DNA from: a virus
Lineage: Duplodnaviria; Heunggongvirae; Uroviricota; Caudoviricetes
Virus record (IMG/VR): IMGVR_UViG_2675903313_000009
Strand: one strand, 5' to 3'
Length of the DNA stretch: 64,000 nucleotides
Positions 5,337 through 59,378 of the stretch are shown here, piece after piece; position 1 is the stretch's first letter, and each line of letters begins with the position of its first letter. The position numbers and the translations under genes are program-made. The notes under the pieces were generated by a model. That model was given only the letters and a program-made list of their open reading frames with translations. It did no database searches and was not told where the DNA came from.

Positions 5337-5352
5337 GTAAGTACATACTTAC
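5337..5352. promoter_or_regulatory. Palindromic TAAGTA..TACTTA motif copy
   Basis: gtaagtacatacttac, perfect palindrome. Confidence 0.4.
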
Positions 5353-5395
5353 GATCATAGAATAGAAAAATAACCAATACACTACGGAGAGTGAA

Positions 5396-5791
5396 ATGAC
5401 CGTTAAACGCGAAAAACTGACAGTTGATGTTTACTATGCCTCTGAAACCGCCGAAGGTAAGAATGTGGCAAAAATCACCGTTGTTACGTACAACACCGAA
5501 ACTGGTGCCGAAGTCCAGGCCAGTACGATCGTGCGTAAAGGTGATGCCTCCGGCGGCGAGTACGCGACTCAATACCAGTCCATTCTCGATGCAACTGACC
5601 CGCTGCTGCTGAAAATCGAGAACTACTTCCGCCAGGTTGATGAAGAGGTGTTTGAAACCATGATGAATATGGTTAACACCGTATTCGCCTCCAGCCTGAA
5701 TACCAACACTACCTGGATTGGTCAGTACGGCCTGCGCATTACCTCTGGCATTCCTGCCGACACCTTAATCCCTGAAAGCGTATTCGCTTAA
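5396..5791 (+). CDS. Hypothetical protein
   Basis: 131-aa ORF with GGAGAG RBS. Confidence 0.5.
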   Translation: MTVKREKLTVDVYYASETAEGKNVAKITVVTYNTETGAEVQASTIVRKGDASGGEYATQYQSILDATDPLLLKIENYFRQVDEEVFETMMNMVNTVFASSLNTNTTWIGQYGLRITSGIPADTLIPESVFA

Positions 5792-5835
5792 TCCTCTTTA
5801 AATGGCGCGTAAACCGCGCCATTTTATTAAGCCCG

Positions 5836-5856
5836 ATAACAATTTGTTTTCTGCCT
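5836..5856 (+). promoter_or_regulatory. Early operator motif copy
   Basis: gataacaatttgttttctgcc. Confidence 0.5.
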
Positions 5857-5908
5857 TATCTGATTTGTGAAAATGATTTCACTGAAGCAAGTTAATAAGG
5901 AAACCATC

Positions 5909-6283
5909 ATGGGACTTGATATCTATATCGAGACACAGCCTAAAAACGATCTGAATAACGAGGCATCCAGAAAGCAGGTTGCTTACTTCCGTAAGTTCAA
6001 TGCGCTCGTTGGGTGGATGGAGCGCAACGTAGGTGAAGTCGAAAATTGTGAGCTTTTAGAATTAACGATGAATGACATTTGTTTTCTGAAGGCTCATTTG
6101 ATGCACATAAACGAAAGTAATTGCGAAGAGTACTTGCCTACCCGGGAAGGTTTTTTCTTCGGCAGTCAGGAGTACGATGAAGGTTACTGGCATGATGTGG
6201 GGCAGTTGAAAGAGCTTGTGGAAGATCTGATTAAGAACCACGACTTTCACAATAACAGACTGACCTTCTGCGCCTGGTGGTAA
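5909..6283 (+). CDS. Hypothetical acidic protein
   Basis: ORF with TAAGGAAA RBS; start chosen at ATG 5909 rather than upstream GTG. Confidence 0.5.
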   Translation: MGLDIYIETQPKNDLNNEASRKQVAYFRKFNALVGWMERNVGEVENCELLELTMNDICFLKAHLMHINESNCEEYLPTREGFFFGSQEYDEGYWHDVGQLKELVEDLIKNHDFHNNRLTFCAWW

Positions 6284-6285
6284 AT

Positions 6286-6429
6286 ATGGGCGATTTCAAG
6301 AAACGCCTGAAGGAAAGAGCCGAGATGGTCAGAAAGCAAAACGCCTCTTCTGTCATCAGATACGCAAGGCAGTTTAGTCGCAACAACAAATCAGTTGAGG
6401 AAAAGATCCTTAGCGTAATCGGTCGATAA
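6286..6429 (+). CDS. Possible small basic protein (47 aa), translationally coupled
   Basis: ATG 3 nt after upstream stop; below ORF-track size cutoff. Confidence 0.3.
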   Translation: MGDFKKRLKERAEMVRKQNASSVIRYARQFSRNNKSVEEKILSVIGR

Positions 6430-6434
6430 TTATT

Positions 6435-6458
6435 AAGGCCATCAATGCTGGTGGCCTT
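6435..6458 (+). terminator. Hairpin, possible terminator
   Basis: Stem aaggcca/tggcctt; weak T tract. Confidence 0.4.
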
Positions 6459-6483
6459 AAATGACCATCCTGTTTCCCGCAGG

Positions 6484-6560
6484 CTAAAAACACCAACCTC
6501 TTACCTCCAGGCAACCGACAAACCCACCTGTTCCCGTCCGGCTACCGCAACTTTCCACTT
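6484..6560 (+). repeat. Second copy of CA-rich element (about 75% similar to 3312..3395)
   Basis: caccaacctctt..ggctaccg..ctttccac shared with the large CA-rich tract. Confidence 0.45.
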
Positions 6561-6596
6561 TGACGCCTTATTCGTACAACGATAATTAACACCAAC

Positions 6597-6620
6597 AAGA
6601 AAACAATTTGTTATTTACGA
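6597..6620 (+). promoter_or_regulatory. Early operator motif copy
   Basis: caagaaaacaatttgttatttacga upstream of ATG 6634. Confidence 0.5.
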
Positions 6621-6633
6621 TAAGGAATTAATC

Positions 6634-7116
6634 ATGAATTTTATCGCTACTGTAAACGCACCCGCACATGGCAATATCGCTGTAACGTTCTCTGACATTG
6701 AAAAACGAGTACTTGGTGCATGGCGCGACAATGAGACGGTAGAACTGTCAGCACAAGAAAAATGCATTATTGCACGCGACATCATTGGCAATCGTCGTTA
6801 CTCGCGGGTATTTGAGAAAGCGTATGTGGTAAATTCTGGATTCGGAACGTTCGTCTTTCCGGTGCGCTCCGGGCGATTCTGCCAGTCCAAGCTGATTGAG
6901 TTCGCTACGCAGATTTCTGTCTGGATTAAAACTCAATCGTCGTTCAAATTTTCCGACGATGAAGCAGTATCGCAGGGGATGCGGATCGCCAACAATGCGA
7001 TTAAATGCAAAAACATTACGTATACCGCTGGCGTTGATACATGGAAACTGTTTTGCGCTAACTTTATGCTGAATGTATACGCAAGCAACCGCATCCACAT
7101 CCTTGATGGCGTGTAA
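6634..7116 (+). CDS. Hypothetical protein
   Basis: 160-aa ORF with TAAGGAA RBS. Confidence 0.55.
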   Translation: MNFIATVNAPAHGNIAVTFSDIEKRVLGAWRDNETVELSAQEKCIIARDIIGNRRYSRVFEKAYVVNSGFGTFVFPVRSGRFCQSKLIEFATQISVWIKTQSSFKFSDDEAVSQGMRIANNAIKCKNITYTAGVDTWKLFCANFMLNVYASNRIHILDGV

Positions 7117-7124
7117 CTGAGAAG

Positions 7125-7147
7125 AGGGCCAGAAACGGCCCTTTCTC
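7125..7147 (+). terminator. Hairpin terminator after 6634..7116
   Basis: Stem agggcc/ggccct then TTCTCT. Confidence 0.5.
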
Positions 7148-7255
7148 TATAGCCACCAGCTGCCGCAGGGAAATTTTCAGAAACGGCGAGGAACGTATTC
7201 ATGAGCCGACGGGGAACGGCCAGGATTTTTTCGGGAAACGGCTGCATTCGCCTTT
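7128..7255. repeat. Direct-repeat array B: about 4 units with core G(G)AAACGGC
   Basis: cagaaacggcc / cagaaacggcg / ggggaacggcc / gggaaacggctg; same core as array A. Confidence 0.55.
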
Positions 7256-7660
7256 GTGTAGAAAAAACATCGGGAAGCTGGTGGAATCCAACCAGCGGTT
7301 GTCGGACAGGTGAGCGGGGAAAATTATGATGACTTTCGTCACCTGAGACATCCAGATTTCTTTCGTGGCATAATCACATACGTGATTAAGTGGTGTGATT
7401 ATGTGAAAAATCACGCGCACATAATACGCGAGCGGATACAGAACAAAACAAAATGCCGATCCGCACCGACAAATAAACGCGGATCACATAGCAAGACTAA
7501 AAGCCAATGATTAACCATACTCTATAGCGCAATATAACGCGTTTTAAGCGCGTTAATGTGTTAAGTAATGGGCATGTACTGGTAAGGATATAAAAGCGCG
7601 TCTATGGCGTTATTTTGGCGCTTATTTTTATGTTGTTGGAGTGAGTTAAAGACAATAAAA

Positions 7661-7680
7661 ACGCGCCATCATTGGCGCGT
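7661..7680. promoter_or_regulatory. GC-core palindrome acgcgcca..tggcgcgt
   Basis: 20-bp inverted repeat in AT-rich intergenic region. Confidence 0.3.
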
Positions 7681-7707
7681 TATGGTGGGAGTATTGGAAA
7701 CGAAAAA

Positions 7708-7726
7708 AGCGCCCATAGTGGGCGCT
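7708..7726 (-). terminator. 19-bp palindrome agcgcccatagtgggcgct with flanking A/T runs (copy 1); likely bidirectional terminator
   Basis: Perfect inverted repeat directly downstream of minus-strand gene 7732..7962. Confidence 0.55.
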
Positions 7727-7731
7727 CGATT

Positions 7732-7962
7732 TTATTTGTGTAAACTGATTTTAAATCCCATTTCTACAAACGCTTTTAGCATTAAAAATATATCAGCGTC
7801 GTTCACGTCTGCTTTTTTTCGCTCCTGGTCGCTCAATAAGTCAATTTTGTGCGTCGTTTCATCTATAAGCTCGACTGCGCGCCCAGCGTAACCAGCGATC
7901 CCAGCGATGCGATTAACATAATATTCATTATGGACGTTAACGCCAGCGATAAGAACAAACAT
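7732..7962 (-). CDS. Hypothetical small protein
   Basis: 76-aa ORF in AT-rich minus-strand block. Confidence 0.4.
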   Translation of the reverse strand: MFVLIAGVNVHNEYYVNRIAGIAGYAGRAVELIDETTHKIDLLSDQERKKADVNDADIFLMLKAFVEMGFKISLHK

Positions 7963-7983
7963 GATTAAGCTCCTTAAAAAAAA

Positions 7984-8187
7984 TTAAATAGAATTTTGAA
8001 GTTTTCCGATTAATGCGCTTAAACGTAAGTATTCACGTTTGCGCTTGCAATCTCGCTTGCTGTTAAGCAAATCAGAAAACGTAAAATTTAATTGGTCGCG
8101 TTGCGCGATTAAATCATCGATTAATTCCAGTTTATAAGCGCGATACTTTGCGCGATATTCCGCGCGGATCTTGTCATAGCTGACCAT
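7984..8187 (-). CDS. Hypothetical small basic protein
   Basis: ORF with GGAG RBS before ATG at 8187; Lys/Arg-rich. Confidence 0.4.
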   Translation of the reverse strand: MVSYDKIRAEYRAKYRAYKLELIDDLIAQRDQLNFTFSDLLNSKRDCKRKREYLRLSALIGKLQNSI

Positions 8188-8204
8188 TTTTAAAGCTCCT
8201 TTAA

Positions 8205-8223
8205 AGCGCCCATAGTGGGCGCT
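8205..8223. promoter_or_regulatory. 19-bp palindrome agcgcccatagtgggcgct (copy 2)
   Basis: Identical to 7708..7726; lies between two minus-strand genes. Confidence 0.4.
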
Positions 8224-8235
8224 TGATTCCATTAA

Positions 8236-8895
8236 TTACGCTTTGAAAGCATCAGCTAAATAATTGTAGAAATCATTTTTAATGAAGCGATATTGCTGAG
8301 TACCAGCTTTCGCGCTCCCAGCTCCTTTGACTTTTTCAACAAGTCCAAGACGTTCGCAAAGATTGATCAACTGGTTGGCTTGAGTATAGCCAGCGTCCAA
8401 TTTAATTTCACACGCTTTTTTAGCTTCATTCATTAAATCGAAAACAGCGCCATTGGTGAACGTGTCGATCTCGTCGTTAATCATATCGATTAAAGCGAAT
8501 ACACGAGATCCTGACATATCAGCGATGGAATAAACGCATTTACCAGATTTAATTGATTTAACCAGATAAACCAGTTTTTCCAGAGAATAACTATTAGTCA
8601 TTGCATCACGGAAAAATACTTCTGGCGCTTGTTTGCTTGCTTTAATCGCATAGTAGAAAACAGAGCATAATTTTTCGTCTTCTACAGCGTTTACAACGTT
8701 GTTGATGAAGTAAGCAAGTTTCGTGGTCGCAGCTTGCATATTTGCTTTGTCTGTTTTAGTGTGCGTACCATTTTTATAATGTTCGTTATATGTTTGAGTC
8801 GCCAGATCTGCTTTTTCGCGCAGCTCGTCGGATACAATAGATGCAGCTTCAATGATGGACTTTTTAGAAATGATAACGTTAGCCATGATGGACAT
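8236..8895 (-). CDS. Hypothetical protein
   Basis: 219-aa ORF, AT-rich. Confidence 0.55.
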   Translation of the reverse strand: MSIMANVIISKKSIIEAASIVSDELREKADLATQTYNEHYKNGTHTKTDKANMQAATTKLAYFINNVVNAVEDEKLCSVFYYAIKASKQAPEVFFRDAMTNSYSLEKLVYLVKSIKSGKCVYSIADMSGSRVFALIDMINDEIDTFTNGAVFDLMNEAKKACEIKLDAGYTQANQLINLCERLGLVEKVKGAGSAKAGTQQYRFIKNDFYNYLADAFKA

Positions 8896-9140
8896 CCTTA
8901 CGAAAAATTAAAATGAATTTATTTTTTACTGTCGTTAGCTAGCTCGCTTTCGACGAGTTCAATTATCGATACGTGAAAAAAGATTGCAAGTATTTTTTTT
9001 AAATTTTTTGCAGGGATGAAAGCCCTAGAAATAAAAGCGAGATCGTCGAAGGTGTTCCCTAAATAAATAATCAATTCGGGCCTTTAACCTTATATATTTA
9101 TACAGAGTGGCATTGAAAGAGTTTTAAATGAATGGCATGT

Positions 9141-9168
9141 AAAATAATAACCGGGCTTAGCCGGTTAT
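9141..9168 (-). terminator. Rho-independent terminator (minus strand) after 9182..9706
   Basis: Stem aaccgg/ccggtt followed by T-run on minus strand. Confidence 0.65.
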
Positions 9169-9181
9169 TACCCTTATAGAT

Positions 9182-9706
9182 TTAAAATGGAAGGATTCGT
9201 TCAACCCAATCGAAGAAAACAAGTATTTTTCTGCCGTCTTCTAACTTAAGAGTGACCTGGCAAGCATCAACGCCTCTTGACACCCCTTCAATTTCACGAC
9301 CGTCTGCCATGTAGACCCTTATAGATTGGTCGTTTTGATAAGCCTTGCGACATATCGCAAAAAAGTCACGGCGTGATGGCTGATTGTCAACATAGTCTGG
9401 ATGTATTGTTAGCCTACCTTTGAACTCGCGAGCAATGCCATCGATTACACCTGATTCAATTGTGCTAATGCGCTCAAGTGGGAGTCTTATACGATTTTCT
9501 TTATCATATGGAAGCGGGCATAAATCTAGCTTATTGCGGGAAGGCATTGTCCCCTGAACGTACATGCAAAACACCTGACCGTCTTCAAGCGTGACTCTTA
9601 CAGGAATGTTGTTCTTCCGCCAGAACATAAGTATGTTTTCAGCATGTTCGTAGTCTCGCGGCCAGACTTCAGCCGGTATGCCGTAGGTGATGTCCAATGT
9701 TCTCAT
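9182..9706 (-). CDS. Hypothetical protein
   Basis: 174-aa ORF; overlaps upstream gene by 4 nt. Confidence 0.5.
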   Translation of the reverse strand: MRTLDITYGIPAEVWPRDYEHAENILMFWRKNNIPVRVTLEDGQVFCMYVQGTMPSRNKLDLCPLPYDKENRIRLPLERISTIESGVIDGIAREFKGRLTIHPDYVDNQPSRRDFFAICRKAYQNDQSIRVYMADGREIEGVSRGVDACQVTLKLEDGRKILVFFDWVERILPF

Positions 9707-10317
9707 TCTGATACTCTTAGAGGTGTTTTCAGCAACCCAAATTTAAATTCTTTGTTACCAACGACAAAGAAGGGAACCTCAACATAGATTTTTTTATCGA
9801 CGGATTTAGAGTTAGCTGTTTTCTGTATGTCACGAACGATACGTTTTGAGATATTTTCATCGATAAACAATACCTTTCCACTTGTATTCCCTTCAGCCTT
9901 GGCGTAAGTAACGATAGGCTCTTCATTGCCAACCCTAATGTTTACTTGGCAACCTGTTGTAGCCATTTCATCACAGTAAAGTGTGCCGTCTTGAACTTCT
10001 AAAACAATTCCAGATGGCTTCATGGCTTCGTCAGAGTTTACATTAACGTTTTCTGGTACAGCGGTCCCGTTAATTTGCAACCGTAATCTTTCTTTTCCTC
10101 CATTAAGTATTGTTTCTTCTGCGTTGTCTGAGAATCTGAACCAAACTGGCTGATTCAGACCTCGTGATTTGTATTCTACTACGTCTTCGGAGGTAAACAT
10201 GCTGTACGTTTTTTGCATGTCAGAGACGAAATCTGATAATGCGTTGGCGGAAAACGCCGGGAGGCATATACAAGCAAGGAGTAACGAAATTTTCATTTTC
10301 ATATCATGATAATCCAA
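9703..10317 (-). CDS. Predicted secreted protein (N-terminal signal peptide)
   Basis: N-terminus MKMKISLLLACICLPAFSANA; true start probably a few codons inside the ORF. Confidence 0.55.
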   Translation of the reverse strand: MDYHDMKMKISLLLACICLPAFSANALSDFVSDMQKTYSMFTSEDVVEYKSRGLNQPVWFRFSDNAEETILNGGKERLRLQINGTAVPENVNVNSDEAMKPSGIVLEVQDGTLYCDEMATTGCQVNIRVGNEEPIVTYAKAEGNTSGKVLFIDENISKRIVRDIQKTANSKSVDKKIYVEVPFFVVGNKEFKFGLLKTPLRVSE

Positions 10318-10806
10318 TTATTTAACATCACACTTTCTAAGTTTTTCTATTTGTTCTAATTTTTCATGATCATCATTTAGATTTCCTTCGACTATCTCCG
10401 TTTCAAGTTTGCTGATTAGCATGTTAAGTGCGTTGTAGTTATTGCATTTTACTTTGTAGGCGTAGTATGACCTTGTCCCTGGTTTTTGTACACCCATATC
10501 ATTAAAGTTAGAGCTTAAAGTATAACCTTCAAGTTCAACCCCTTTTATTGTTGGAAGAATTATATTTAATGGTTCTAATTTAAATGGGTAGATATAAATA
10601 TGTGATATGAAGTACTCTTCTGAAGAGATTTTCTTCATGTCTTTTGTGATTGAAGCTGAATATTTACGGTTCCGAGTGATATAAAATTTTGTGCATTTGT
10701 ACAACTCTAGGTTGAATAGATAATATTTATCTTTAAAAAGAACATCTTTTCCATGTGATATTTTATGTCGTAAAGAGTTAATTATTTTGTTTATGGAAAT
10801 ACTCAT
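10318..10806 (-). CDS. Hypothetical protein, Lys-rich
   Basis: 162-aa ORF abutting downstream gene; low GC. Confidence 0.5.
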   Translation of the reverse strand: MSISINKIINSLRHKISHGKDVLFKDKYYLFNLELYKCTKFYITRNRKYSASITKDMKKISSEEYFISHIYIYPFKLEPLNIILPTIKGVELEGYTLSSNFNDMGVQKPGTRSYYAYKVKCNNYNALNMLISKLETEIVEGNLNDDHEKLEQIEKLRKCDVK

Positions 10807-10951
10807 CTACAGTATCCGACCTTAGTTATCAATTGAAAAGCCTACAAATATCGTTCTGCCAATCAAGAAATTTTTTCAGCCGGAGGTGTGTGCTTCAAAA
10901 AATGTGATGAATATCACATGCAGGTGCTCTCATACACCTGCATGTAGACTA

Positions 10952-11551
10952 TTAATCATTCAATAATCTATATTTTCTTTTGATTAAATCTTCACCTTTT
11001 TTGGTGAACACAAAACCAAATTGCGATTTTTTGTTCAGCCTAAGTACTCTGTTATCCAACGCATCGGTTGATGGAATCAATGTTTGATCATCTATCCAAT
11101 TAAGTAGCGTAAGAAAGTTCAGCAGCCTCAACGTTGTTGTGCGAAGCTCTTTCGATATATTTTCAATGCTGGCAATTCGTCTTTCTTTTTTCTCAGGTGG
11201 TACAGATAATTGTTCTTGAGGTTTCGTGGATAGATAATCAATTTCGTTTGCTGCATCGAATGATATGTGTGGCGTAATTTTGCTAAAAAAGCCTTTCGCT
11301 GACTCACTTGATAATAAACCAGACCTATTCATATCGTTTGTTATTCTGTACAGGAGTGGACTGTGTTTCATTTCAGGATAACGTTGATAAAAGTTAAGCA
11401 ATTCAAAAGCAGCATTAGCGCCAACAAGAAAATCAGAAGGATCGCTGACTTTCCAGAAAGAATGATTTTTCTTAGCGCCAGTGGTGTCAACAAATGATAA
11501 TTCTTTTAACCAACTCATGATGTGCTCCTTTCTAACAAGTGAGCACATCAT
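10952..11551 (-). CDS. Hypothetical protein
   Basis: 199-aa ORF, low GC. Confidence 0.5.
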   Translation of the reverse strand: MMCSLVRKEHIMSWLKELSFVDTTGAKKNHSFWKVSDPSDFLVGANAAFELLNFYQRYPEMKHSPLLYRITNDMNRSGLLSSESAKGFFSKITPHISFDAANEIDYLSTKPQEQLSVPPEKKERRIASIENISKELRTTTLRLLNFLTLLNWIDDQTLIPSTDALDNRVLRLNKKSQFGFVFTKKGEDLIKRKYRLLND

Positions 11552-11583
11552 AGAATTAGTAGATAGGGGGTAAATATGAAATG

Positions 11584-11862
11584 TTACGGCAACCTGCTCA
11601 GTATTTCCTCTAGATCTTTTTTTGTCATATTGGAGTTCTCATAGATGCGCATGATTTTCTCACGCGTCTTAGCGGAAACCCCAACGGCAGATGTGACTTT
11701 GTCAAATTCAGCCATAGTCATCGTCTCCAGAATGGCATTGATAACTTCAGCCTTAGACATCTTGATTTTTTTCTCTTTGAGTTTTATTTGAAATTTTCCA
11801 AGTTTTTCATTGGCTTTATCAGACAATGCCACTTGGCAATAAGTTGTTTTTTTTTCGCTCAT
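11584..11862 (-). CDS. Hypothetical small protein
   Basis: 92-aa ORF overlapping helicase stop. Confidence 0.45.
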   Translation of the reverse strand: MSEKKTTYCQVALSDKANEKLGKFQIKLKEKKIKMSKAEVINAILETMTMAEFDKVTSAVGVSAKTREKIMRIYENSNMTKKDLEEILSRLP

Positions 11863-11864
11863 AA

Positions 11865-13424
11865 CTAATCTCGTTTCAGAACTCCAAAATCGAATGTGCC
11901 ATCAATTGGCAATACACCTTCTGCAAAGCCAGGTGTGGTGTCGATGATGTGTTTTCGCTCATAAGAGTGAGACAACAGGTATTTGTTGCTAATGTCAATG
12001 AAATCAGTGATAAAACACACGTTTGCCTGATTTTTTTTTGCTCGTAAGCCACGACCGACACGCTGTCTCATTTCAACTTCTGCTTTCCCACCACCAGCAA
12101 GAATGACCGCGCCCACGCTTGGCACATCAACACCGACATCCAGAATAGTCGAGCCTATTAAAACATCTATTTCGCCAGACGCTAAACTGTTCAGCTTTGC
12201 TTGCCTTGTCGCCTGGTTCGATTCCCCATAAATGAAGTCAACTCTAAGGCCGGACTCCTTCATCATCTCCATCAGGATTTGCCCGTGGCGTTTAAGACGA
12301 ACCAGAGTCATACAATTGAGAGAATGTTGCTTATAGAGCAATGCTTCGCGCACAATGGCCTCGTTACGTCCCAAATTATACACGATCCCCAACTGATAAG
12401 CCTTTTGGTAGGCAGTGCTCATACCAACTCTAAAATTGAGGTGTTTGTTGGCAAGTTCGGCCTTGATTCTGGCCTCGTCTGGCTTGTAGGCAACTTTATG
12501 ATAAAGGAAGTACGGCTTTGCCAGAATGCCTCGATCAATCAGGTACTTTTCTGTGACTTTAATTTCAATTCGCCCGGCCACCGCCATCAGGCGCATGTTG
12601 GCTTCCGTCGAATCCTTCATGAACGGCGTGGCTGTAAGCGCCAGACGATAGTCTGCGTTCACACATAATCTGGCAATGTCATAGAAATTAGAGCCTGAAG
12701 ACTCATGCGCTTCTTCCAGAATAAGCAGAGACACACTTGAAAGGAAGCGTTTCACTAGCTCCCGACGTTTGAGGTGGTAGCTCTTTTTATCTGGTGTTGC
12801 ATCGCGTGGTGGTTCTTCAAGGAAACTTGCCAGAGTTTGAACTGTAGCGACGTTGATATGTCGTGATACCTGGAACTCACCCGAGCCAATGACTCCAACC
12901 TTTTGGCCCTTTAACCACGGTTCGCCATTTTCGGCGCGGTAGTCGATGGATCTCTGGAAGTTTTCGGCCATTTGAAACATCAGAACAGAGCGGGTTGTTA
13001 AAAATAATGTCATTCGACCGATACGTGCAGCTGCTTTGCAGGCAACATTAGATTTCCCGCCACCAGTAGCGATCTGCGCAATCATCATTCCCTCTCGAAC
13101 CAGTGTTTCCACAGTCTGATCCTGATACGCATAATCAGGATTGTATGGGAATGGGTTAACCGCTGGATTTGGTTTTCCAAGCGCCGGGGCTTTGTCTTTG
13201 CGGATATGAACACATTTGATGCCCGCCTTGTTCAAGTTCGCCGCTACAGGCTTGGCAAAGCCAGCAGGGAACGAGTTTTTACTCCAGTTGAACATTGTGC
13301 TTGTGCCCTTCCAGTCGCCAGTCTCGACTTCGTAGCTCAACATCTGTTGCACCATTTGCTTTACCTTGTCATCTGCGCCAGAAATAAGCGCATTAACTGC
13401 GTTAGATACAATCCGAACAGTCAT
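11865..13424 (-). CDS. Superfamily-2 (DEAD/DEAH-like) helicase
   Basis: Walker A ATGGGKS, DEAH-like LILEEAH, motif III LTATP. Confidence 0.8.
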   Translation of the reverse strand: MTVRIVSNAVNALISGADDKVKQMVQQMLSYEVETGDWKGTSTMFNWSKNSFPAGFAKPVAANLNKAGIKCVHIRKDKAPALGKPNPAVNPFPYNPDYAYQDQTVETLVREGMMIAQIATGGGKSNVACKAAARIGRMTLFLTTRSVLMFQMAENFQRSIDYRAENGEPWLKGQKVGVIGSGEFQVSRHINVATVQTLASFLEEPPRDATPDKKSYHLKRRELVKRFLSSVSLLILEEAHESSGSNFYDIARLCVNADYRLALTATPFMKDSTEANMRLMAVAGRIEIKVTEKYLIDRGILAKPYFLYHKVAYKPDEARIKAELANKHLNFRVGMSTAYQKAYQLGIVYNLGRNEAIVREALLYKQHSLNCMTLVRLKRHGQILMEMMKESGLRVDFIYGESNQATRQAKLNSLASGEIDVLIGSTILDVGVDVPSVGAVILAGGGKAEVEMRQRVGRGLRAKKNQANVCFITDFIDISNKYLLSHSYERKHIIDTTPGFAEGVLPIDGTFDFGVLKRD

Positions 13425-50594: not shown

Positions 50595-50605
50595 TGGTGA
50601 GCCAC

Positions 50606-51353: not shown

Positions 51354-51378
51354 TAGAAAACAATTTGTTTAAAAAACA
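51354..51378 (+). promoter_or_regulatory. Early operator motif copy upstream of helicase
   Basis: ctagaaaacaatttgtttaaaaaac. Confidence 0.5.
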
Positions 51379-52877: not shown

Positions 52878-53993
52878 GTGAGCGAGCTGAAAGAGCTAAT
52901 TACCGAATTAGATTTTGAACAATGGTTGGACACTGAAGGTATCGTTTATCGACGTGGAGGCGTGAGTGCTCGCGGTCGTGAAGTGAATATCAAGGAGTGT
53001 CCGGTATGTGGCAGCTCCAACTGGAAGGTATATTTCAATCTGACCAGTGGCGTCGGCAAATGCTTTGCTGGTGATCATCCCGAAGAGATTCAGTTCAATA
53101 AGCTGATCTTCCTCAAGCACTACAGCGGTAAATCACGACGACAGTTCGAGGAATATGTGCAGAACGCGCTGATCTCACAAGGATGGGCGCCGAAGAAGGA
53201 AGAGGTCGTGCTGGCCAGCAAGGTTGAACTCGAAGGGCCAGTAGCTCTCCCTCGACATTACGAACTCCCCATTGACGGTCGTCTTCCTGATTATCTGGTG
53301 GAGCGCCATATCTCCCCGGATCTGGCCAAATACTTTGATCTGCGTTACTGCGTCGAAGGCAAGCACGCATACGTCGATCCGTACACAGACCAGGTCAAAG
53401 GGCAGGTGTTTGATATGCGCATCCTGATACCGGTTTACGATCTGGATGGCGTGATGAAGACCTTCCAGGGGCGTGACATTACCGGTGCAGCAGAACGTCG
53501 CTACCTCTTTCCTATGCAGCTTCCAGCTTCAGGTAGGTTTCTCTACAACGGCCATAATGCAGTCGGCAAACAGACTGTAGTTGTCTGTGAGGGGGCGTTC
53601 GATGTTATGGGGGTCAAACGAGCTATTTTTGACGAAGAAACATTACGTGATTACGTGGAACCAATAGGAACGTTCGGGATGCATCTATCTGGTAACACCA
53701 CTCAGGATGCAGAAGATCAGCTGGGCGCGTTCCTGACGCTCAAGGCGCGTGGGCTACGTAATGTGATTATGATGTGGGATAGTGAAAAGCAGGCTATACG
53801 CAACACTATGGCCGCAGCCAGGCGACTGAGCAGTATTGGTCTTAATGTGAAAATTGCATGTTTGGGCGAGGAAGGACTCGACCCCGGCGATGCGACCCCG
53901 GGGCAGATTATCAAAGCCTACTATTGCGCAAAACCTTACTCACGACAGCTTGAACTTTTAAGCAAGGTAAAAGGCATAGCTGCATTAGTTTGA
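52878..53993 (+). CDS. DNA primase (zinc-finger plus TOPRIM)
   Basis: CPVCGSS..CFAGDH zinc-binding motif; TOPRIM-like VVVCEGAFDVMG; start codon uncertain. Confidence 0.75.
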   Translation: MSELKELITELDFEQWLDTEGIVYRRGGVSARGREVNIKECPVCGSSNWKVYFNLTSGVGKCFAGDHPEEIQFNKLIFLKHYSGKSRRQFEEYVQNALISQGWAPKKEEVVLASKVELEGPVALPRHYELPIDGRLPDYLVERHISPDLAKYFDLRYCVEGKHAYVDPYTDQVKGQVFDMRILIPVYDLDGVMKTFQGRDITGAAERRYLFPMQLPASGRFLYNGHNAVGKQTVVVCEGAFDVMGVKRAIFDEETLRDYVEPIGTFGMHLSGNTTQDAEDQLGAFLTLKARGLRNVIMMWDSEKQAIRNTMAAARRLSSIGLNVKIACLGEEGLDPGDATPGQIIKAYYCAKPYSRQLELLSKVKGIAALV

Positions 53994-55130
53994 ACCAGTA
54001 TTAGTCACATACACATTGACCGAAAATGATTTAACTTCAGTATTGAAGTTGTCAGTCATTACCGCGAGGTAGGCATTTTTGGTATCTCTGAATTGCTTCA
54101 GGATGATTTGAACGTTATCTGTGCAAACAAACGAGGTAGCCAGATTGCCTCCTTTCTCTGAAAAATCCTTCAGGAATGTGCAGTCAACTTTGCCATCATT
54201 AGCGGTGAAGGTAGCATCATCACCCTGCCAGGTAAATGTAGCGTTAACGCCCTTATCAATGGATTTAGCAATAAGTCGCTGGGTGGCGGATTTTGTTTTG
54301 GCTTTGGAAGCCGGCGCTCGATATTTGCCGCTTTCTTTCAGTTCTGCAATGTAATCGCAGCCTCTTTTTTCTCCTTTATCGCAAGCAGTCTGATAAAGGT
54401 CGGCTGCTTTTTTATAGTCCTTTTTTACACCTTCCCCATTCTCATACATAATGCCAAGATTGGTTATGGCGTCGGCGTTTCCAAGTTCCGCTGCCTTTTT
54501 ATACCACTTAACTGCTTCTGCATCATTGCGTTTAACGCCTAACCCATCATCGTATAGTATTCCTAATCCTATCATAGCTTCTGAACTGCCTTGGTCTGCC
54601 GCCTTTTTGTAATAAGTAAAAGCCTTTTTATAATTCTTTTTAACGCCTTTACCATATTGGTAATACGCCCCAAGAACTGAAGTTGCTTTAACATACCCGG
54701 CATCAGAGGCTAGTTTGAAGTATTTAATGGCGAGTGCATGATCTACTTTACCAAGCAACCCCTTTTGATAAATAGCACCAAGATTGTTGTAGGCTCTACC
54801 TTCACGAGCATCCCCCGCAAGTTTGTAGTACTCAACAGCTTTATTTAGGTCTTTATCTACACCCTCGCCAAATGTGTACATAACCCCAAGTGCATAATAT
54901 GCTACTTTGTCTCCCTTTTCTGCAGCGAGATCAATCCACTTCTTGGCCTCAACTACATCCTTATCAAAACCATTGATACCATCAAAATAATTTGTCCCTA
55001 ACTCACTTTGTGCTGCGGTATCCCCTGCGGTAGCGGCTTCTATCAGCGTTTGTTTATTGTCTGCGTTAACGAATCCAGAGCTAAAAAGCAAAGTTAATGC
55101 CAGCAACGATGAAGATTTTATGTATTTCAT
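53985..55130 (-). CDS. Secreted Sel1-like repeat protein
   Basis: Signal peptide MKYIKSSSLLALTLLFSSGFVNA; about 7 Sel1-type repeats; C-terminal ~120 aa unassigned. Confidence 0.8.
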   Translation of the reverse strand: MKYIKSSSLLALTLLFSSGFVNADNKQTLIEAATAGDTAAQSELGTNYFDGINGFDKDVVEAKKWIDLAAEKGDKVAYYALGVMYTFGEGVDKDLNKAVEYYKLAGDAREGRAYNNLGAIYQKGLLGKVDHALAIKYFKLASDAGYVKATSVLGAYYQYGKGVKKNYKKAFTYYKKAADQGSSEAMIGLGILYDDGLGVKRNDAEAVKWYKKAAELGNADAITNLGIMYENGEGVKKDYKKAADLYQTACDKGEKRGCDYIAELKESGKYRAPASKAKTKSATQRLIAKSIDKGVNATFTWQGDDATFTANDGKVDCTFLKDFSEKGGNLATSFVCTDNVQIILKQFRDTKNAYLAVMTDNFNTEVKSFSVNVYVTNTGSN

Positions 55131-55363
55131 ATTTTTTGTTCTGTTGATATAGGATGAACAGTTTAGACGCGGCAAGCGTCAAGTGTGCGAAAAAGGGTAC
55201 TTAAATTTAGTTAATATGTCAGCTTTGTTGATTTAGTTTATGGTCGGTAAAGTTACTAGGAAACTAATAACCATAAGAAATAGTACGCCATTTAATTATT
55301 GTGGCACTGCTCGTGTTTTGATTAACTAATACCTGCGATAAATATAAATAAAGGGAAGCCAAC

Positions 55364-55815: not shown

Positions 55816-55840
55816 TATAGGGAACTATTGCGCCTAAAAT

Positions 55841-55861
55841 GATAAGTAGATACATACTTAG
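55841..55861. promoter_or_regulatory. Palindromic GATAAGTA..TACTTA motif copy
   Basis: gataagtagatacatacttag. Confidence 0.4.
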
Positions 55862-55902
55862 TTTTTTGTAAGAATACTTTCATCTGTTAGCTAGGAGTTG
55901 GT

Positions 55903-56679
55903 ATGAAAGACGAAATTCAGAAATTGGCCTGTGACATCATTGATAAAACAGGTTTAGAAATCAGCGAGGGCAGTCGACTAGACATCATTGGAAAGGCCGT
56001 CAATACAGCAATGAATCATATCGCTGCTCGTATGGACGAGATCCCGCTACCAGGGTTGCCTTATCTGAAAGTTGAGTTACACGTATGGGGCGAACCTTCT
56101 TGTGCACGGCGTTCTGCATTAGTTGTTTTTATTAGCAAAGAAAACCCGCTCAGTCTTAAAGTGCAGGTTGGAGCATGGCTTGATGGCAGAGTGATCTACA
56201 CAAATACCGTTTTTTGTCTTTCAAACGACGAAACTATTGAAGCGGCCATTCAAGAAGCAGTTCTAGCAATGCGCAGCAGCGGTTTGATGAAGAATAACTA
56301 CGAAGAGTACTTGCGTTCGATAAGTGGTGAAAAGACATTATCTCTGAAAGCAGATTTCGTTACCCCGAAAAATCTGTTGGAAGTTTTGATTAATAAAGGG
56401 GCTAATAGTGCCGTAAATGTAATCAGAGAGAGTGAATACGCGTCTCTTTGGGATATGTGCAAAAGCCAGTTGGATCTTGTGCATATCGTTGTAGATGCGG
56501 GGAAGGCTTGTGATGGCGTAATGGCGGAATTTACTGGGAAGATGGTCAGGATTGCTAACGAATTACCGATGATTAAACAAGAGGCTAAATCATACGCCAC
56601 CAATCATGTCACAGAGCTTCTTGCCCCTTATCGCTTAGAAAGCGATCAGCGCAAGATGATTAGCTGGGGAAGTTGGTAA
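55903..56679 (+). CDS. Hypothetical protein
   Basis: 258-aa ORF. Confidence 0.5.
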   Translation: MKDEIQKLACDIIDKTGLEISEGSRLDIIGKAVNTAMNHIAARMDEIPLPGLPYLKVELHVWGEPSCARRSALVVFISKENPLSLKVQVGAWLDGRVIYTNTVFCLSNDETIEAAIQEAVLAMRSSGLMKNNYEEYLRSISGEKTLSLKADFVTPKNLLEVLINKGANSAVNVIRESEYASLWDMCKSQLDLVHIVVDAGKACDGVMAEFTGKMVRIANELPMIKQEAKSYATNHVTELLAPYRLESDQRKMISWGSW

Positions 56680-56746
56680 GCTCTCTGTGTGTCGTTTTTT
56701 ACGCAAACAATGATAGGTAAGCACAAGATTATTTCTGGCGGTAATT

Positions 56747-57217
56747 GTGAAAGCTGATTTGTCAAAAATCCCTTCTATTTCAGGAAATAACGGTTATTCA
56801 CTTCGTTGTGAGGAAGTAAAGATAAACGGTGAGTCGGCATATTGCAGCTACTCCGTTTGCCAGCACACCATTCTTGCCTTCAAAGAAAACCGTCTTCCTC
56901 GAACTTCATTCCAGTCGTGCGCAACCGCTATCAAAGCAGGCAAATGCAAGGCGTTAAAAATGATGGTTGAAGAGATTCGTAAAGGAGAATCTCTGTATTT
57001 CGAAGATATGACCGCGCTCATTAAGGAGGTTGAAGAACGGAATAAACAAGCCAGAACTTTAAAACGAAAACGTGACAGTGTAACGATTAATAGCATGGTT
57101 AAGAAGAGCACCACATCACAAACAGCGATCACTGACGTGTATGCGGCGTTGCTTGAAGAAACAACAAAAGAAACACATGAGCAAATCGATCAACATATGG
57201 AGGTAAAACAACAATGA
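56747..57217 (+). CDS. Hypothetical protein
   Basis: 156-aa ORF (GTG start in track). Confidence 0.4.
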   Translation: MKADLSKIPSISGNNGYSLRCEEVKINGESAYCSYSVCQHTILAFKENRLPRTSFQSCATAIKAGKCKALKMMVEEIRKGESLYFEDMTALIKEVEERNKQARTLKRKRDSVTINSMVKKSTTSQTAITDVYAALLEETTKETHEQIDQHMEVKQQ

Positions 57218-58536
57218 AAAAGTTGATCGCACTTAAGCATAAGCTGGACGAAATGAAAGCTATGGGAACCAATGCAAAAAAAGAGGCATTGGCCAACATG
57301 GATGACTTCGAGCAAAGCATGGTTTCATTGATGCTCAACCCTTTCATCCGTTTTGGGGTAAAGAAATACAAAGTGGCAGAGCCGCTTAGTGAGTCCATCC
57401 CAAGTGACGAAAAAGCCATTGATGTACTGAATAAGCTGGCCTCTCGCGAGCTAACGGGGAACGCAGCAATAGCTGCTGTTGAGTCTATCGTGGCGTCAAT
57501 GTGCGCCGATGGGCAGGACGTGTTCCGTCGTTTCCTCTTAAAAGACCCGAAAGCGGGTGTTGGGATTAGCCTATGCAACAAGGTTTTTGAAAATCCCATT
57601 CCGAAATTCGAGGTGCAGCTGGCGTCACCGTATAAAGAAAAAGGCGACAAATACCCCTTCAAGCCAAATCCTAAAGCAAAATGGCCGATGATTGGCAGCC
57701 TTAAGCTCGATGGTTTGCGAGTAATTTGCGAGGTTATTGTTGACGAAGAAGAGGTTAACTTCCTTTCTCGTACTGGTAATCCAATCACGTCTCTCGATCA
57801 CCTAAAGCCAGCCATGCTCGAATTAGGCAAACTTTCAGGCCACAAACACATCTTCTTCGATGGTGAAGGCACAGCCGGTTCATTTAACCAGTCCGTATCT
57901 GCATTGCGCAAAAAGAACGTGCAGGCAATTGGCGCTATTTATCATATTTTCGACTTCTTCCTACCGGAATGGCGAGCACAGGCTAAATCCAAAGAGTATG
58001 CAAAGACAGGTATGAAGCTGAAAGAGCGCCTGGCTATGCTGGTGGCGTTGTTCAAAAACGATCGCAGTGAAGGCTACACACAAGACATTCACCTGCATCC
58101 GTTCTATATCATCCATAGCCACGAAGACTTCATCGAACGCTTCATGAAACGCCTGGACGATAACGAAGAAGGGGAGATGGGCAAAGATCCGAACTCTGTT
58201 TACGAGTTTAAACGTACCCGCAGCTGGTGGAAGTTAAAAGACGAAGATTCAGAAGATGGTGAAATTATCGACTTTGAGCCGGGCGATCCGGACTCTGGTT
58301 TTGCCAACACGCTTGGAAAAATTGTTATTCGCCTTGAAAACGGTGTGATTGTTCGTGCGAGCGGCATTAAGCATAAATATCTGGACGAGATCTGGAACAA
58401 CAAAGAGAAGTACCGTGGTCGTATTGTCGAGGTTCATTGTCACGAGAAAACGCCGGATGGCAGCTTACGCCACCCACGACTGAAATGGCCGCGTTGCTTA
58501 CGCGATACAGAAGATCGAATCGGAGATAAAGAATGA
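57214..58536 (+). CDS. ATP-dependent DNA ligase
   Basis: Adenylation motif I KLDGLR (SLKLDGLRV); about 150-aa N-terminal extension. Confidence 0.85.
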   Translation: MKKLIALKHKLDEMKAMGTNAKKEALANMDDFEQSMVSLMLNPFIRFGVKKYKVAEPLSESIPSDEKAIDVLNKLASRELTGNAAIAAVESIVASMCADGQDVFRRFLLKDPKAGVGISLCNKVFENPIPKFEVQLASPYKEKGDKYPFKPNPKAKWPMIGSLKLDGLRVICEVIVDEEEVNFLSRTGNPITSLDHLKPAMLELGKLSGHKHIFFDGEGTAGSFNQSVSALRKKNVQAIGAIYHIFDFFLPEWRAQAKSKEYAKTGMKLKERLAMLVALFKNDRSEGYTQDIHLHPFYIIHSHEDFIERFMKRLDDNEEGEMGKDPNSVYEFKRTRSWWKLKDEDSEDGEIIDFEPGDPDSGFANTLGKIVIRLENGVIVRASGIKHKYLDEIWNNKEKYRGRIVEVHCHEKTPDGSLRHPRLKWPRCLRDTEDRIGDKE

Positions 58537-58712
58537 TGCTCGGTTGGATGATTGCATTTTTAGCAGTTGGTTTTTTCATAGGTATTGTGGTGATGTCCAG
58601 TTGCATCAATGACTACATTAAAAGCGGTGTTATAGAAAGACGCGGTCGTATTTATCGCATTGTAGAAATAACCAACACCGTGAAGGAGATTAAGGATGAT
58701 CGTATTAAGTAA
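58536..58712 (+). CDS. Small single-pass membrane protein (paralog 1)
   Basis: 58-aa ORF found by eye; TM helix then RIYRIVEIT; start overlaps ligase stop (ATGA). Confidence 0.45.
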   Translation: MLGWMIAFLAVGFFIGIVVMSSCINDYIKSGVIERRGRIYRIVEITNTVKEIKDDRIK

Positions 58713-58911
58713 ACGGGAGAAGGAAACGCTTCATGAAATCAGTAAGTGGCCGGAGTTCCCTGAGTACTGGAAGCCTAAAACGCGAGCTAAGTTAGAGCGT
58801 TTAGGGTTGGTTGCAAACGTTTCTGAAACGTGGTGTTCGGCCAACTACCAGTTAACTGATAAAGGGAAAGTATTGCTACAGCAATTAGTAGAATCAGGAG
58901 TGTTAAAATGA
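58696..58911 (+). CDS. Hypothetical small protein
   Basis: 71-aa ORF overlapping neighbours. Confidence 0.4.
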   Translation: MIVLSKREKETLHEISKWPEFPEYWKPKTRAKLERLGLVANVSETWCSANYQLTDKGKVLLQQLVESGVLK

Positions 58912-59060
58912 TTCCATACATCTCATTAGCTTTTATGGGTGGCTTCCTTATCGGCTTCGGCATCTGTCGTGATTTAATTAAGCAGGAACTTAAAACCAAA
59001 ACACTGTGCATCGGAAAGCGTGTGTATCGGGTAGTTCATGAAACAAAGGTGAAAAAATGA
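58908..59060 (+). CDS. Small single-pass membrane protein (paralog 2)
   Basis: 50-aa ORF found by eye; TM helix then RVYRVVHET; ATGA overlaps at both ends. Confidence 0.45.
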   Translation: MIPYISLAFMGGFLIGFGICRDLIKQELKTKTLCIGKRVYRVVHETKVKK

Positions 59061-59347
59061 TCAATTTGACTTCTTGGAACTGGTGGTTGGCCACCTATTT
59101 CTTAGCGGCCGGAGTCGCATTCGCCTTTTACGTAGGTCAGTTAGTCGTAAAACTGTTGCTGATTAAATTTGCTAGTCATAAACGTATCGATGATGGTCTG
59201 TGGCGTCTTGGCACCCTGGTGGAAATTCGCTACGGGCAACTTAAGGAGAACGAAACCATTACTATCCAAGCGAAACGATTCACTGCCACCATTACAAGAA
59301 CACCTAGTCGTAGAGTGGCCTTGATCAAAAAAGTCACAACCGAATAA
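59057..59347 (+). CDS. Small membrane protein (paralog 3)
   Basis: N-terminal TM helix; basic C-terminus. Confidence 0.5.
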   Translation: MINLTSWNWWLATYFLAAGVAFAFYVGQLVVKLLLIKFASHKRIDDGLWRLGTLVEIRYGQLKENETITIQAKRFTATITRTPSRRVALIKKVTTE

Positions 59348-59356
59348 AAACATATT

Positions 59357-59378
59357 GATAAGTATTTACTTACTTATC
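59357..59378. promoter_or_regulatory. Palindromic GATAAGTA..TACTTATC motif copy (full 8-bp arms)
   Basis: gataagtatttacttacttatc. Confidence 0.45.

Follow-up and report, generated by a model that had tools for sequence, protein, structure and literature searches.

The C1 operators of the plasmid prophage P1 are 17 bp long and asymmetric and are read by a large repressor, and the P1 late operons are under the control of Lpa, whose 9-bp box (AAGTnACTT, located at -22 and followed by TAnnnT) serves late genes only and is separated from the -10 hexamer by four nucleotides in six of the seven annotated promoters read (9 nt in LPhot). The operators of the lambdoid repressors (P22 c2, 434 and lambda cI) are 14-18 bp long and confined to the immunity region, and the sites of KorB (RK2) and SopB (N15) are palindromic and dispersed. 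The stoperators of cluster A mycobacteriophages such as L5 and Bxb1 are 13-14 bp long, asymmetric, read by a monomer and set in one orientation. There are twenty to thirty-odd of these repressor sites per genome in short intergenic gaps of the early and late regions, often touching stop or start codons, and they are thought to stop elongating polymerase (PMC9283540). Here we analysed a stretch of 64,000 nucleotides (the window) from a virus of the class Caudoviricetes (IMG/VR record IMGVR_UViG_2675903313_000009), in which an AT-rich palindrome recurs between genes. This dispersed palindrome is real, and from its sequence we infer a conserved protein-binding site with more than 20 copies per genome in SSU5-like phage-plasmids. 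That a protein reads it on duplex DNA and thereby controls transcription of the lytic operons is very probable. Our preferred reading, to which we give a probability of about 0.5, is that the motif would serve as a multi-copy operator of a dimeric phage regulator, most probably a helix-turn-helix (HTH) prophage repressor, that silences the lytic operons.

By similarity the window is an SSU5-like phage-plasmid. It is about 96.5% identical to the E. coli phage Cyrano (pLF82), and over a 10-kb structural segment the identity was 96.8% to Escherichia phage Cyrano and 81% to Salmonella phage SSU5. Positions 16745-40065 of the window are collinear with Cyrano 1-23340 and positions 1-16742 with the end of the Cyrano record, and gene names in the window were transferred from the Cyrano annotation. 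Gene calls were heuristic throughout; the intergenic share of the window was 11.6% by a simple gene map and 13% in the hexamer count. The backbone of SSU5-like elements matched 968 plasmids in the collection searched, including plasmids of Klebsiella, E. coli, Enterobacter, S. Typhi (pHCM2) and Yersinia pestis (pMT1-type) and, more distantly, of Acinetobacter; in the much more distant A. baumannii relative (plasmid p5734_2) TerL, portal and capsid have 52-60% amino-acid identity. SSU5-like elements have been described as the largest phage-plasmid supergroup (PMC9600943), and some of them carry resistance genes and are DNA-damage-inducible (PMC9600943, PMC9928086). Searches of the accessible literature returned no description of the motif or of SSU5-type transcriptional regulation.

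A preliminary description of the window had listed twelve inverted repeats with arms TAAGTA and TACTTA. The motif was present at all twelve positions, but the exact arms were found at only six of them (5338, 13471, 25766, 39178, 55843 and 59359). At 18762, 22189, 32256 and 50573 a good left arm is joined to an imperfect right arm, and the copies at 44313 and 56712 are essentially left half-sites (right-arm scores 1.8 and -4.5). Two further copies had been overlooked, one at 62214-62237 and one at 20268-20291 within the 3' end of the portal gene. All enrichment scans placed the copies far above chance. The exact arrangement TAAGTA-N0-12-TACTTA was observed six times against 0.03 expected and GATARGTA 14 times against 2.6 expected, TAAGTA was the top hexamer for intergenic enrichment (20/31 copies intergenic, p = 3e-11), and a de novo expectation-maximization search of intergenic DNA ranked the motif first. 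Of the 14 window copies, 13 are intergenic (p ~7e-11).

When the copies of the window, Cyrano and SSU5 were taken together the element could be refined to a palindrome of 24 bp (TGATARGTAAG-nn-CTTAYCTATCA), of which the window has 14 copies, Cyrano 22 and SSU5 26. A scan for pairs of half-sites with variable spacing recovered 11, 22 and 26 copies, respectively, compared to 0.4-0.6 in dinucleotide shuffles and 0.6 for the window alone. Half-site variants include ATARGTAAG and ATTAGTAAG. The arm spacing is mostly 2, with a minor class in which the arms are 4 bp closer and a few copies in which they are 4 bp further apart (5335 and 25759); given the internal 4-bp period of the half-site (TAAG-TAAG), such 4-bp shifts retain part of the match. 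The upstream half is more conserved than the downstream half. Since the scoring matrix was built from left halves this bias is partly circular, and the strand count of orphan half-sites and the analysis of the Acinetobacter flanks served as checks independent of the matrix: orphan GATARGTA half-sites were found eight times on the + strand and once on the - strand, and the upstream flank of the Acinetobacter element is also more regular than its downstream flank.

The copies in the window, with left (L) and right (R) arm scores from the pair scan where given, were the following.

5335-5354, + strand: variant copy TTGTAAGTACATACTTACGA, arms 4 bp further apart (GTAAG-N6-CTTAC), called from sequence
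13468-13491, + strand: copy TAATAAGTAAGtgATTACTTAGTG (L 16.0, R 7.3)
18761-18784, + strand: copy CGATAGGTAAGTAATTATCTAAGG at the terminase-large/portal junction
20268-20291, + strand: copy AAATAAGTCAGtaCTTACTTATGA inside the 3' end of the portal open reading frame (ORF), 97 nt before the next gene (20389)
22188-22203, + strand: short variant AGATAAGTAGTTATCT, preceded by the stop codon of the major-capsid gene (22177) and followed by a terminator hairpin (22212-22228) with a T-run
25759-25782, + strand: copy CAATTAGTAAGtaTATACTTACTA ahead of the major tail gene
32255-32281, + strand: extended copy GGATAAGTAAGTACTAATTTACTATCA between tail genes M and L, with a hairpin (32286-32308) after it
39171-39194, + strand: copy AAATAGGTAAGtaTTTACTTAATG between tail gene J and the tail-fibre gene (L 15.9, R 6.4)
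44312-44335, + strand: left-arm-strong copy TGATAGGTAAGTACACACCTACAA (L 16.3, R 1.8)
50572-50595, + strand: copy CAATAAGTAAGtaACTACCTATCT (L 14.6, R 12.6)
55840-55863, + strand: copy TGATAAGTAGAtaCATACTTAGTT ahead of ORF 55903-56679
56711-56734, + strand: left half-site TGATAGGTAAGCACAAGATTATTT (L 16.3, R -4.5)
59356-59379, + strand: copy TGATAAGTATTtaCTTACTTATCT, the best of the window (total score 29.2)
62214-62237, + strand: copy AGATAAGTATGcaCATACCTATCT ahead of the glutaredoxin-cluster genes (L 14.3, R 14.2)

The position just upstream of + strand genes, noted in the preliminary description, held. The further statement that the copies often follow a terminator hairpin was clearly borne out only at 5337, where a GC hairpin with a T-run precedes the 5335 copy and ORF 5396-5791 follows it, and loosely at 55841; at 22189, 32256 and 39178 the hairpin comes after and not before the motif, and at 39171 it is a GC hairpin directly 3' of the site. 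The copies were also not mostly located before structural or late operons. Only six of the 14 window copies are located ahead of genes for structure or lysis, namely portal, the Ig-like gene, major tail, tail L, fibre and holin, and genome-wide such copies are a minority. Seven precede other genes, i.e. a small early-region ORF, the divergent helicase/ParB-like pair, a gene of the helicase operon, two of the ligase operon, the tRNA cluster and the glutaredoxin cluster, and the copy inside the portal gene is upstream of the scaffold and capsid genes. Cyrano copies beyond the window precede cobS, SSB, sbcD, nrdA, thyX, dam and others. The motif is not a late-gene-specific promoter element.

Several copies are closely fitted to the adjoining genes. 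At the terminase/portal junction the TerL stop codon TAG (18764-18766) is inside the left arm and the site ends 8 nt 5' of the portal ATG (18793). The 44312 copy and the TGA stop codon of the preceding ORF overlap and the holin gene (44384) starts 48 nt downstream, the 50572 copy ends about 10 nt before a conserved 246-aa gene that is the first of the helicase/primase operon, and the 56711 half-site, which has orthologs in Cyrano and SSU5, is located 12 nt before the GTG at 56747 (ligase operon). The 22188 variant precedes the Ig-like gene (22251), and the 59356 copy precedes the tRNA cluster (Asn, Tyr, Thr and Ser, 60126-60649). The 13468 copy occupies a 64-bp divergent region between a UvsW-like helicase gene (11865-13424, - strand) and the ParB_N operon on the + strand. 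It was also observed that the stop codon of the upstream gene often falls within the stop-rich left arm (TGA-TAA/TAG-G-TAA), as at 18764-18766, 20365-20367 and 44312-44314, and that an orphan left half-site GTGATAAGTAAC at 20364-20375, kept in SSU5, gives the portal stop codon. A function as a three-frame stop spacer was considered and rejected: the left arm TGATAAGTAAG contains stop codons in two of the frames, and the upstream gene often ends on one of them, but conservation extends to the right arm and to the orthologous positions, so that this appears to be a side effect.

All of the 22 Cyrano sites have an ortholog in SSU5, and the identity between the two phages was 85.7% in the sites compared to 72.7% in the flanking 35 bp on either side (Fisher p = 9e-10, aligned comparison). 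By this comparison the motif is under purifying selection. The portal-internal copy is identical at 24 of 24 positions in Cyrano and SSU5, SSU5 has an ortholog of the 39171 copy, and for some of the weaker window copies the relatives are closer to the consensus: the SSU5 ortholog of the 44312 copy is a perfect palindrome (GTAGGTAAGCGCTTACCTAC), and the orthologs of the 18761 copy in SSU5 (AGATAGGTAAGtgCTTACCTAACG), Klebsiella (AGATAAGTAAGtaCTTACCTATCA) and Acinetobacter (TATTAGTAAGCGCTTACTAATAT) are nearer to it. In the Klebsiella phage-plasmid pJN2-26 the consensus and the junctions at which it occurs are the same, and the order capsid gene, site, terminator is found in SSU5, Klebsiella and Acinetobacter. 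In the Acinetobacter relative the element is AWTATTA-GTAAGCGCTTAC-TAATAWT with the core GTAAGYRCTTAC; matches to this core were found 27 times against 0.4 expected, among others at the helicase/ParB, TerL/portal, capsid-terminator and tail-gene junctions.

An inverted repeat in the gaps of polycistronic mRNA could also act as an RNA hairpin in processing, stability or translational control upstream of ribosome-binding sites. Many copies do lie in intercistronic gaps near Shine-Dalgarno sequences or terminator hairpins, two of them fold well (-8.3 and -6.1 kcal/mol), and the window encodes an FljA-like protein. However, only two of eight copies folded clearly better than shuffled sequences, the other six folding no or barely better and in differing registers, and on average 7.4 of the 11 arm positions can pair. 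Among 29 sites, 82 of the 98 deviating arm pairs deviate on one side without compensation, and deviations on both sides (16 compared to 11 expected under independence) are barely above chance. The A/G position of the arm pairs with T and C as independence predicts, with R and Y varying separately in each arm, and the half-sites of the palindrome are thus conserved independently of each other. The stem sequence is conserved and the centre is free, the opposite of what protein-recognised hairpins show; some copies are upstream of the predicted start sites and would hence not be transcribed, and the Acinetobacter relative has the motif without the FljA-like gene. A function as RNA is therefore very unlikely. 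On these alignments the conserved feature is the half-site sequence and not the pairing, and the uncompensated conservation of the half-sites together with the poor RNA folding argues for a symmetric dimer that reads duplex DNA.

The relation to promoters was examined with predicted promoters, i.e. matches to the sigma-70 consensus. With uniform scoring, matches of at least 9/12 on the gene strand were found at 6/18 Cyrano and 8/21 SSU5 sites, compared to 1/18 and 3/21 on the other strand and 1% in control intergenic windows. In the window, a consensus scan gave promoter matches at 5335, 20264, 25748, 32254 and 62175, on or beside copies of the motif. The register varies, the site being placed over the -35 together with the spacer, over the spacer, over the -10 or over the first bases to be transcribed, and the start of the -35 ranges from -15 to +9 relative to the site. 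Thus the 5335 copy is within TTGTAA-17-TAGAAT (5335-5363; the SSU5 ortholog has the same geometry, TTGTAA-17-TAATAT), and the 20268 copy forms the spacer of TTGAAA-17-TATGAT (at 20264, 10/12), which is the best sigma-70-like match of the 20-kb structural region. The 25759 copy, containing the perfect 20-bp palindrome TAGTAAGTATATACTTACTA, overlaps the -10 of TTGAAT-18-TATACT (25748-25777), and the outer arms of the 32255 copy coincide with TGGATA-17-TATCAT (32254-32282). An extended -10 (TGTAAGAAT, in TAGATA-17-AAGAAT with TG) begins 4 nt 3' of the 55840 site, and TTTACT-17-TAAGAT was found at the 59356 copy. The 62214 copy is just 3' of TTGATC-16-TATAAT (62175-62202, 10/12), which ends 12 nt before the site and places it at about +5 to +28. 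In the divergent helicase/ParB region the strong matches are on the minus strand and point at the helicase gene, in the enteric genomes as well as in Acinetobacter: a minus-strand TATAAT adjoins the 13468 site, among the Cyrano sites the ortholog of this copy alone has a strong minus-strand match (TCCACT-18-TATAAT), and the Acinetobacter ortholog has a helicase-strand TTGAAA-18-TATAAT (11/12).

The preliminary description had proposed a late-promoter element or activator site. The link to transcription signals was supported, given that promoter overlap exceeds that of the controls, whereas late specificity and a role as promoter core or activator were not; overall, the observation was confirmed in part and its interpretation supported in part. 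A promoter core or activator box requires a fixed distance to the -10, and with the varying register such an element is unsupported. A rival explanation of this kind would be a middle/late box of the P1 Lpa type, in which a phage activator dimer binds the inverted repeat that replaces the -35 and host sigma-70 polymerase uses the downstream outer arm (TATCAT or TATAAT) as -10. The P1 late promoters have the form AAGTnACTT-N4-TAnnnT, and the core of the motif is AAGT-ACTT or AAGYRCTT. The downstream arm resembles TAnnnT in about half of the enteric copies and is often TATAAT in Acinetobacter, the better conserved upstream half follows gene direction, SSU5 keeps all copies in a genome lacking the repressor, and RNA steps up at the sites before CYRAN_12 and CYRAN_60.

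Against such a box, the distance to the -10-like hexamers is not fixed and the sites are not confined to late genes. Four conserved copies are located directly before a terminator-type hairpin, between it and a stop codon (after capsid, at tail M/L, at J/fibre and before nrdA), and four are 8-12 nt from a start codon; copies ending this close to the start codons of the portal, CYRAN_31-like and CYRAN_35-like genes leave no space for a downstream start. A start downstream of these copies would be futile or would lose the ribosome-binding site, so that they weigh against an activator box. Several of the overlapping promoters have a good -35 and -10 with 16-18-bp spacers and would need no activator, a core at about +1 of the repressor promoter (see below) is in a repressing position, and no activator-like family was found among the approximately 30 proteins scanned. 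A search for a homolog of P1 Lpa (tblastn against Cyrano and SSU5) gave a best E of 0.29, which is a weak test for a small, fast-evolving protein. We consider an activator box unlikely.

Other known elements were compared with the motif and rejected. The T4 late promoter (GATAAGTA compared to TATAAATA) agrees at 6/8 positions and no gp55, gp33 or clamp genes are annotated, and the interior of the motif differs from the MotA and Fur boxes. The NarL heptamer TACYYMT fits the enteric arm, but the arrangement is opposite to the 7-2-7 site and the Acinetobacter arm TACTAAT misfits. A phage sigma factor was dismissed as well. Acinetobacter p5734_2 has a gene annotated as a sigma-70 family factor (18092-18757), located between a cobS-like gene and dnaE, but its Sigma70_r2 match is weak (E 0.0026) and no counterpart was detected in Cyrano, SSU5 or the window.

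For the operator reading, the candidate binder is encoded at the end of the window.

63833-64000, - strand: 3' part (about 55 codons) of the HTH prophage-repressor gene, mapped to Cyrano CYRAN_45

The window ends within this gene for a 128-aa HTH protein (WP_001282577-type), which adjoins the integrase gene, and the repressor promoter is about 250 bp past the window end. A plasmid that is 100% identical over window positions 62600-64000 continues with TTTACA-N16-TAATAT-C-GGTAAGCACTTACC before the repressor gene. The Cyrano repressor gene is preceded by the same sequence, with a perfect inner core of the motif at about +1. Besides Cyrano and the plasmid that matches the window end, Klebsiella pJN2-26 and S. 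Typhi pHCM2 also keep the arrangement TTTACA-N16-TAATAT-C-[A/G]GTAAG[C/T]ACTTACC, the repressors of the latter two being only 56% and 66% identical. A core at about +1 is in a repressing position. Overall, an operator for a repressor accounts for the findings better than a late-promoter element or an activator site would. The family to which the protein belongs was found in 865 plasmids, and its counts per genus are nearly one-to-one with those of the structural backbone (repressor and backbone, respectively: Klebsiella 348 and 342, Escherichia 230 and 208, Enterobacter 92 and 91, Yersinia 63 and 62, Salmonella 49 and 49). The Acinetobacter relative, which has the Acinetobacter version of the motif, also has a repressor homolog with 38% identity. 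The protein has a weak Pfam match to HTH_19 (E 7.8e-4, below the curated cut-off) and is named an XRE-family or HTH regulator in some records; comparison with solved structures gave no match. Pfam and PHROGs scans of about 30 candidate proteins for a binder returned only FljA-like, ParB_N, ABC ATPase and weak HTH hits, the others matching nothing beyond families of unknown function, and a homolog search with the 88-aa protein encoded before terS returned unannotated close relatives only.

Published RNA-seq data from LF82 lysogens (PMC9928086, supplement 2) are compatible with silencing, as expression was seen for the repressor and the genes linked to sites are nearly all at background level. 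RNA steps up at CYRAN_12, CYRAN_34 and CYRAN_60, at a resolution too low for start sites. CYRAN_12, the ortholog of the gene behind the 25759 copy, is about 2.5 log2 units above the upstream gene, and CYRAN_34, behind the 55840 copy, is above its upstream neighbour. Levels of the capsid gene and of CYRAN_12 are raised in the macrophage samples taken at 6 h.

The ParB-like genes are also at background in the lysogens (PMC9928086), so that their products cannot be what silences the prophage state. These products bear on another explanation, that the motif copies are sites for the two ParB_N proteins (13489-14855) and the ABC-type ATPase, with an organising, silencing or packaging function as for KorB/parS or the N15 Sop system. 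Their operon is directly behind the 13468 copy, the N-terminal domain resembles Spo0J/ParB/KorB/Noc, operon and promoter site are kept as far as Acinetobacter (36-54% identity), and palindromes scattered between genes irrespective of promoter position would be in keeping with it. In the ParB_N proteins, however, a DNA-binding domain of the HTH type was not detected, and the gene-strand promoter enrichment, the core at the repressor promoter and the asymmetry along gene direction would be left unexplained. This explanation appears improbable.

In the preferred reading, a symmetric repressor dimer would occupy more than 20 palindromes in the plasmid-prophage state. Copies over sigma-70-type lytic promoters would exclude RNA polymerase, those between cistrons or just before terminators would block read-through as roadblocks, and through the weaker core copy located at about +1 of its own promoter the repressor would regulate itself negatively. 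Once DNA damage had removed the repressor, the replication, nucleotide-metabolism, structural and lysis operons would be released together. A broader and more tentative proposal, which we regard as possible but somewhat doubtful, is that one small lambda-like repressor gates the whole lytic programme of the SSU5, pHCM2, pMT1 and Acinetobacter "AB-like" phage-plasmids through more than 20 operators, those of the structural and lysis operons included, with no dedicated late activator and with pre-terminator copies insulating neighbouring operons. In three of the four copies that precede a hairpin, transcription starting some 7 nt past the closest TAnnnT would begin within the 5' arm of that hairpin, and such transcripts would escape the terminator that halts read-through from upstream.

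A number of observations weigh against an operator for this repressor. SSU5 (NC_018843, about 42.5-42.8 kb compared to Cyrano 41.0-43.1 kb) lacks the module made up of the integrase, the HTH repressor and a small divergent ORF, and still its 26 copies show no decay. Possibly SSU5 derives from a phage that lost the repressor by deletion, and its retention of the sites could reflect a recent deletion or a need for the sites in lytic growth. At the repressor promoter the copy has the inner 14 bp of the motif but lacks the outer TGATA/TATCA arms, which in the dispersed copies are as conserved as the core, so that the binder may be a related but different protein. Conservation of the core across lineages with repressors as little as 38% identical is unusual for immunity operators. 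The outer arms are -10-like (TATCAT in the enteric genomes, TAATAT or TATAAT in Acinetobacter), and together with the better conserved upstream half this would also fit a directional promoter element. About half of the copies have no convincing sigma-70-like promoter, and promoter-like matches were below shuffle expectation in all three regions scanned, most clearly in the structural one. Detectable expression in lysogens was seen for CYRAN_34 and for the tRNA cluster, each of which is behind a site (PMC9928086). Repression through the sites is something we infer, as is the identity of the binder, for which position and co-occurrence are the grounds.

Some further observations were made on the same regions. 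Nearly all plasmid-borne relatives carry the integrase-repressor module, and in SSU5 cobT is preceded by a copy of another palindrome family, AGAAAACAAnTTGTTT. Positions 20001-40000 of the window had nine sigma-70-like matches compared to 23.2 +- 6.4 in shuffles, and three of the nine are on motif copies. The operon at 13489-16680, directly upstream of terS/terL, encodes the two ParB_N proteins, the ABC-type ATPase, a 296-aa protein (in the Cyrano annotation an ATPase fused to an acetyltransferase fold) and the 88-aa protein; its order and sequence are kept in the Acinetobacter relative (36-54% identity).

The palindrome family AGAAAACAAnTTGTTT is presumably the "early operator" of the preliminary description, and the present motif is distinct from it, as had been stated there. 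Its copies in the window are at 1590-1600, 1641-1651, 4935-4945, 5839-5849, 6603-6613, 16827-16837, 47332-47342 and 51360-51370. Several of those read are 15-16 nt (12 nt in one) after a -10-like hexamer and just before a Shine-Dalgarno sequence, and the copies at 1590 and 5839 are also over a -35 region. The FljA-like gene (9182-9706, - strand; Pfam "repressor of phase-1 flagellin", E 5e-81) and this family are both present in the enteric genomes and both absent from the Acinetobacter relative. FljA binds the fliC mRNA leader, and the AGAAAACAAnTTGTTT family might therefore be an RNA or DNA operator of the FljA-like protein.

Long GC-clamped AT-rich palindromes, CCTGCTTCTGTATATA...TATATACGGAAGCAGG, were found at 16705-16761 and 50432-50487, with motif-like centres (ATAAGTAACTTAT and TAAGTTACTTA). 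One is upstream of terS and the other between the ParA operon, which is expressed in lysogens, and the silent helicase operon, where the RNA-seq signal of Cyrano falls by about 6 log2 units. Equivalents were found in Klebsiella, and before terS in Acinetobacter; these palindromes may be bidirectional terminators, insulators or special binding sites.

The window also contains cargo unlike that of Cyrano, at 45807-47270, 48411-50408, 53985-55175 (- strand) and 60842-62104 (- strand), including a DUF2971 protein, a 398-aa ORF, a minus-strand Sel1-repeat protein (Pfam E 1e-54) and a 420-aa minus-strand ORF. No match in the window was found for the Cyrano KacT toxin-antitoxin pair or the very highly expressed CYRAN_43. 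The tRNA cluster (60126-60649) consists of Asn-GTT, Tyr-GTA, Thr-TGT and Ser-TGA, compared to Asn, Thr and Ser only in the Cyrano annotation.

A defined operator would give a regulon map and predict the positions of lytic promoters, would provide a handle to induce or lock SSU5-like elements, and would offer a simple test of direct repressor control over late genes in the SSU5-like family.

When compared to the described systems, the motif is not a member of the P1 late-promoter class, since neither its spacing nor its late specificity was found here and the search for an Lpa homolog gave no support. The two resemble each other in having an inverted repeat of the AAGT..ACTT type where a -35 would be, before many operons of a phage-plasmid, but the core AAGT-ACTT or AAGYRCTT lacks the central base of AAGTnACTT and is embedded in a 24-bp palindrome. 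TAnnnT is at the P1-equivalent position in about half of the copies, the fixed 4-nt spacing of P1 being absent, and the sites have a variable register and serve all gene classes. With the KorB OB sites of RK2 and the Sop sites of N15 the motif has in common dispersed palindromes at many operons and a ParB-family protein, ParB_N being encoded behind one copy. Sequence and length are different, no HTH or other DNA-binding domain was detected in the ParB_N proteins, and their genes are silent in lysogens, in contrast to what such a system would lead one to expect.

The C1 network of P1 is alike in that a plasmid prophage has one repressor with scattered operators over sigma-70 promoters and its own promoter (P1 record), and here too dispersed sites were found over sigma-70-like promoters of separate operons, with the repressor a candidate. 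Unlike the C1 operators, the motif is a 24-bp palindrome, the candidate repressor has 128 aa, and sites are also placed before structural and lysis genes; a tblastn search for a C1 homolog found none (best E 1.6). As for the stoperators, many copies were found in short gaps across early and late regions, but the site is a palindrome with only a quantitative bias to the upstream half rather than an asymmetric sequence in one orientation, many copies are over promoters, and a block of elongation would be hypothetical. The resemblance to lambdoid operators is one of form, with two half-sites around a free centre, a copy at the repressor promoter (the core GGTAAGnnCTTACC in four enteric lineages, as the inner 14 bp only) and a candidate HTH dimer. 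The half-site of P22 c2 also ends in TTAAG. In contrast to the lambdoid sites there are more than 20 copies of 24 bp over about 100 kb. By analogy, the closest systems in logic would be the C1 operator network of P1 and the mycobacteriophage stoperators, and the closest in form the lambdoid HTH operators.

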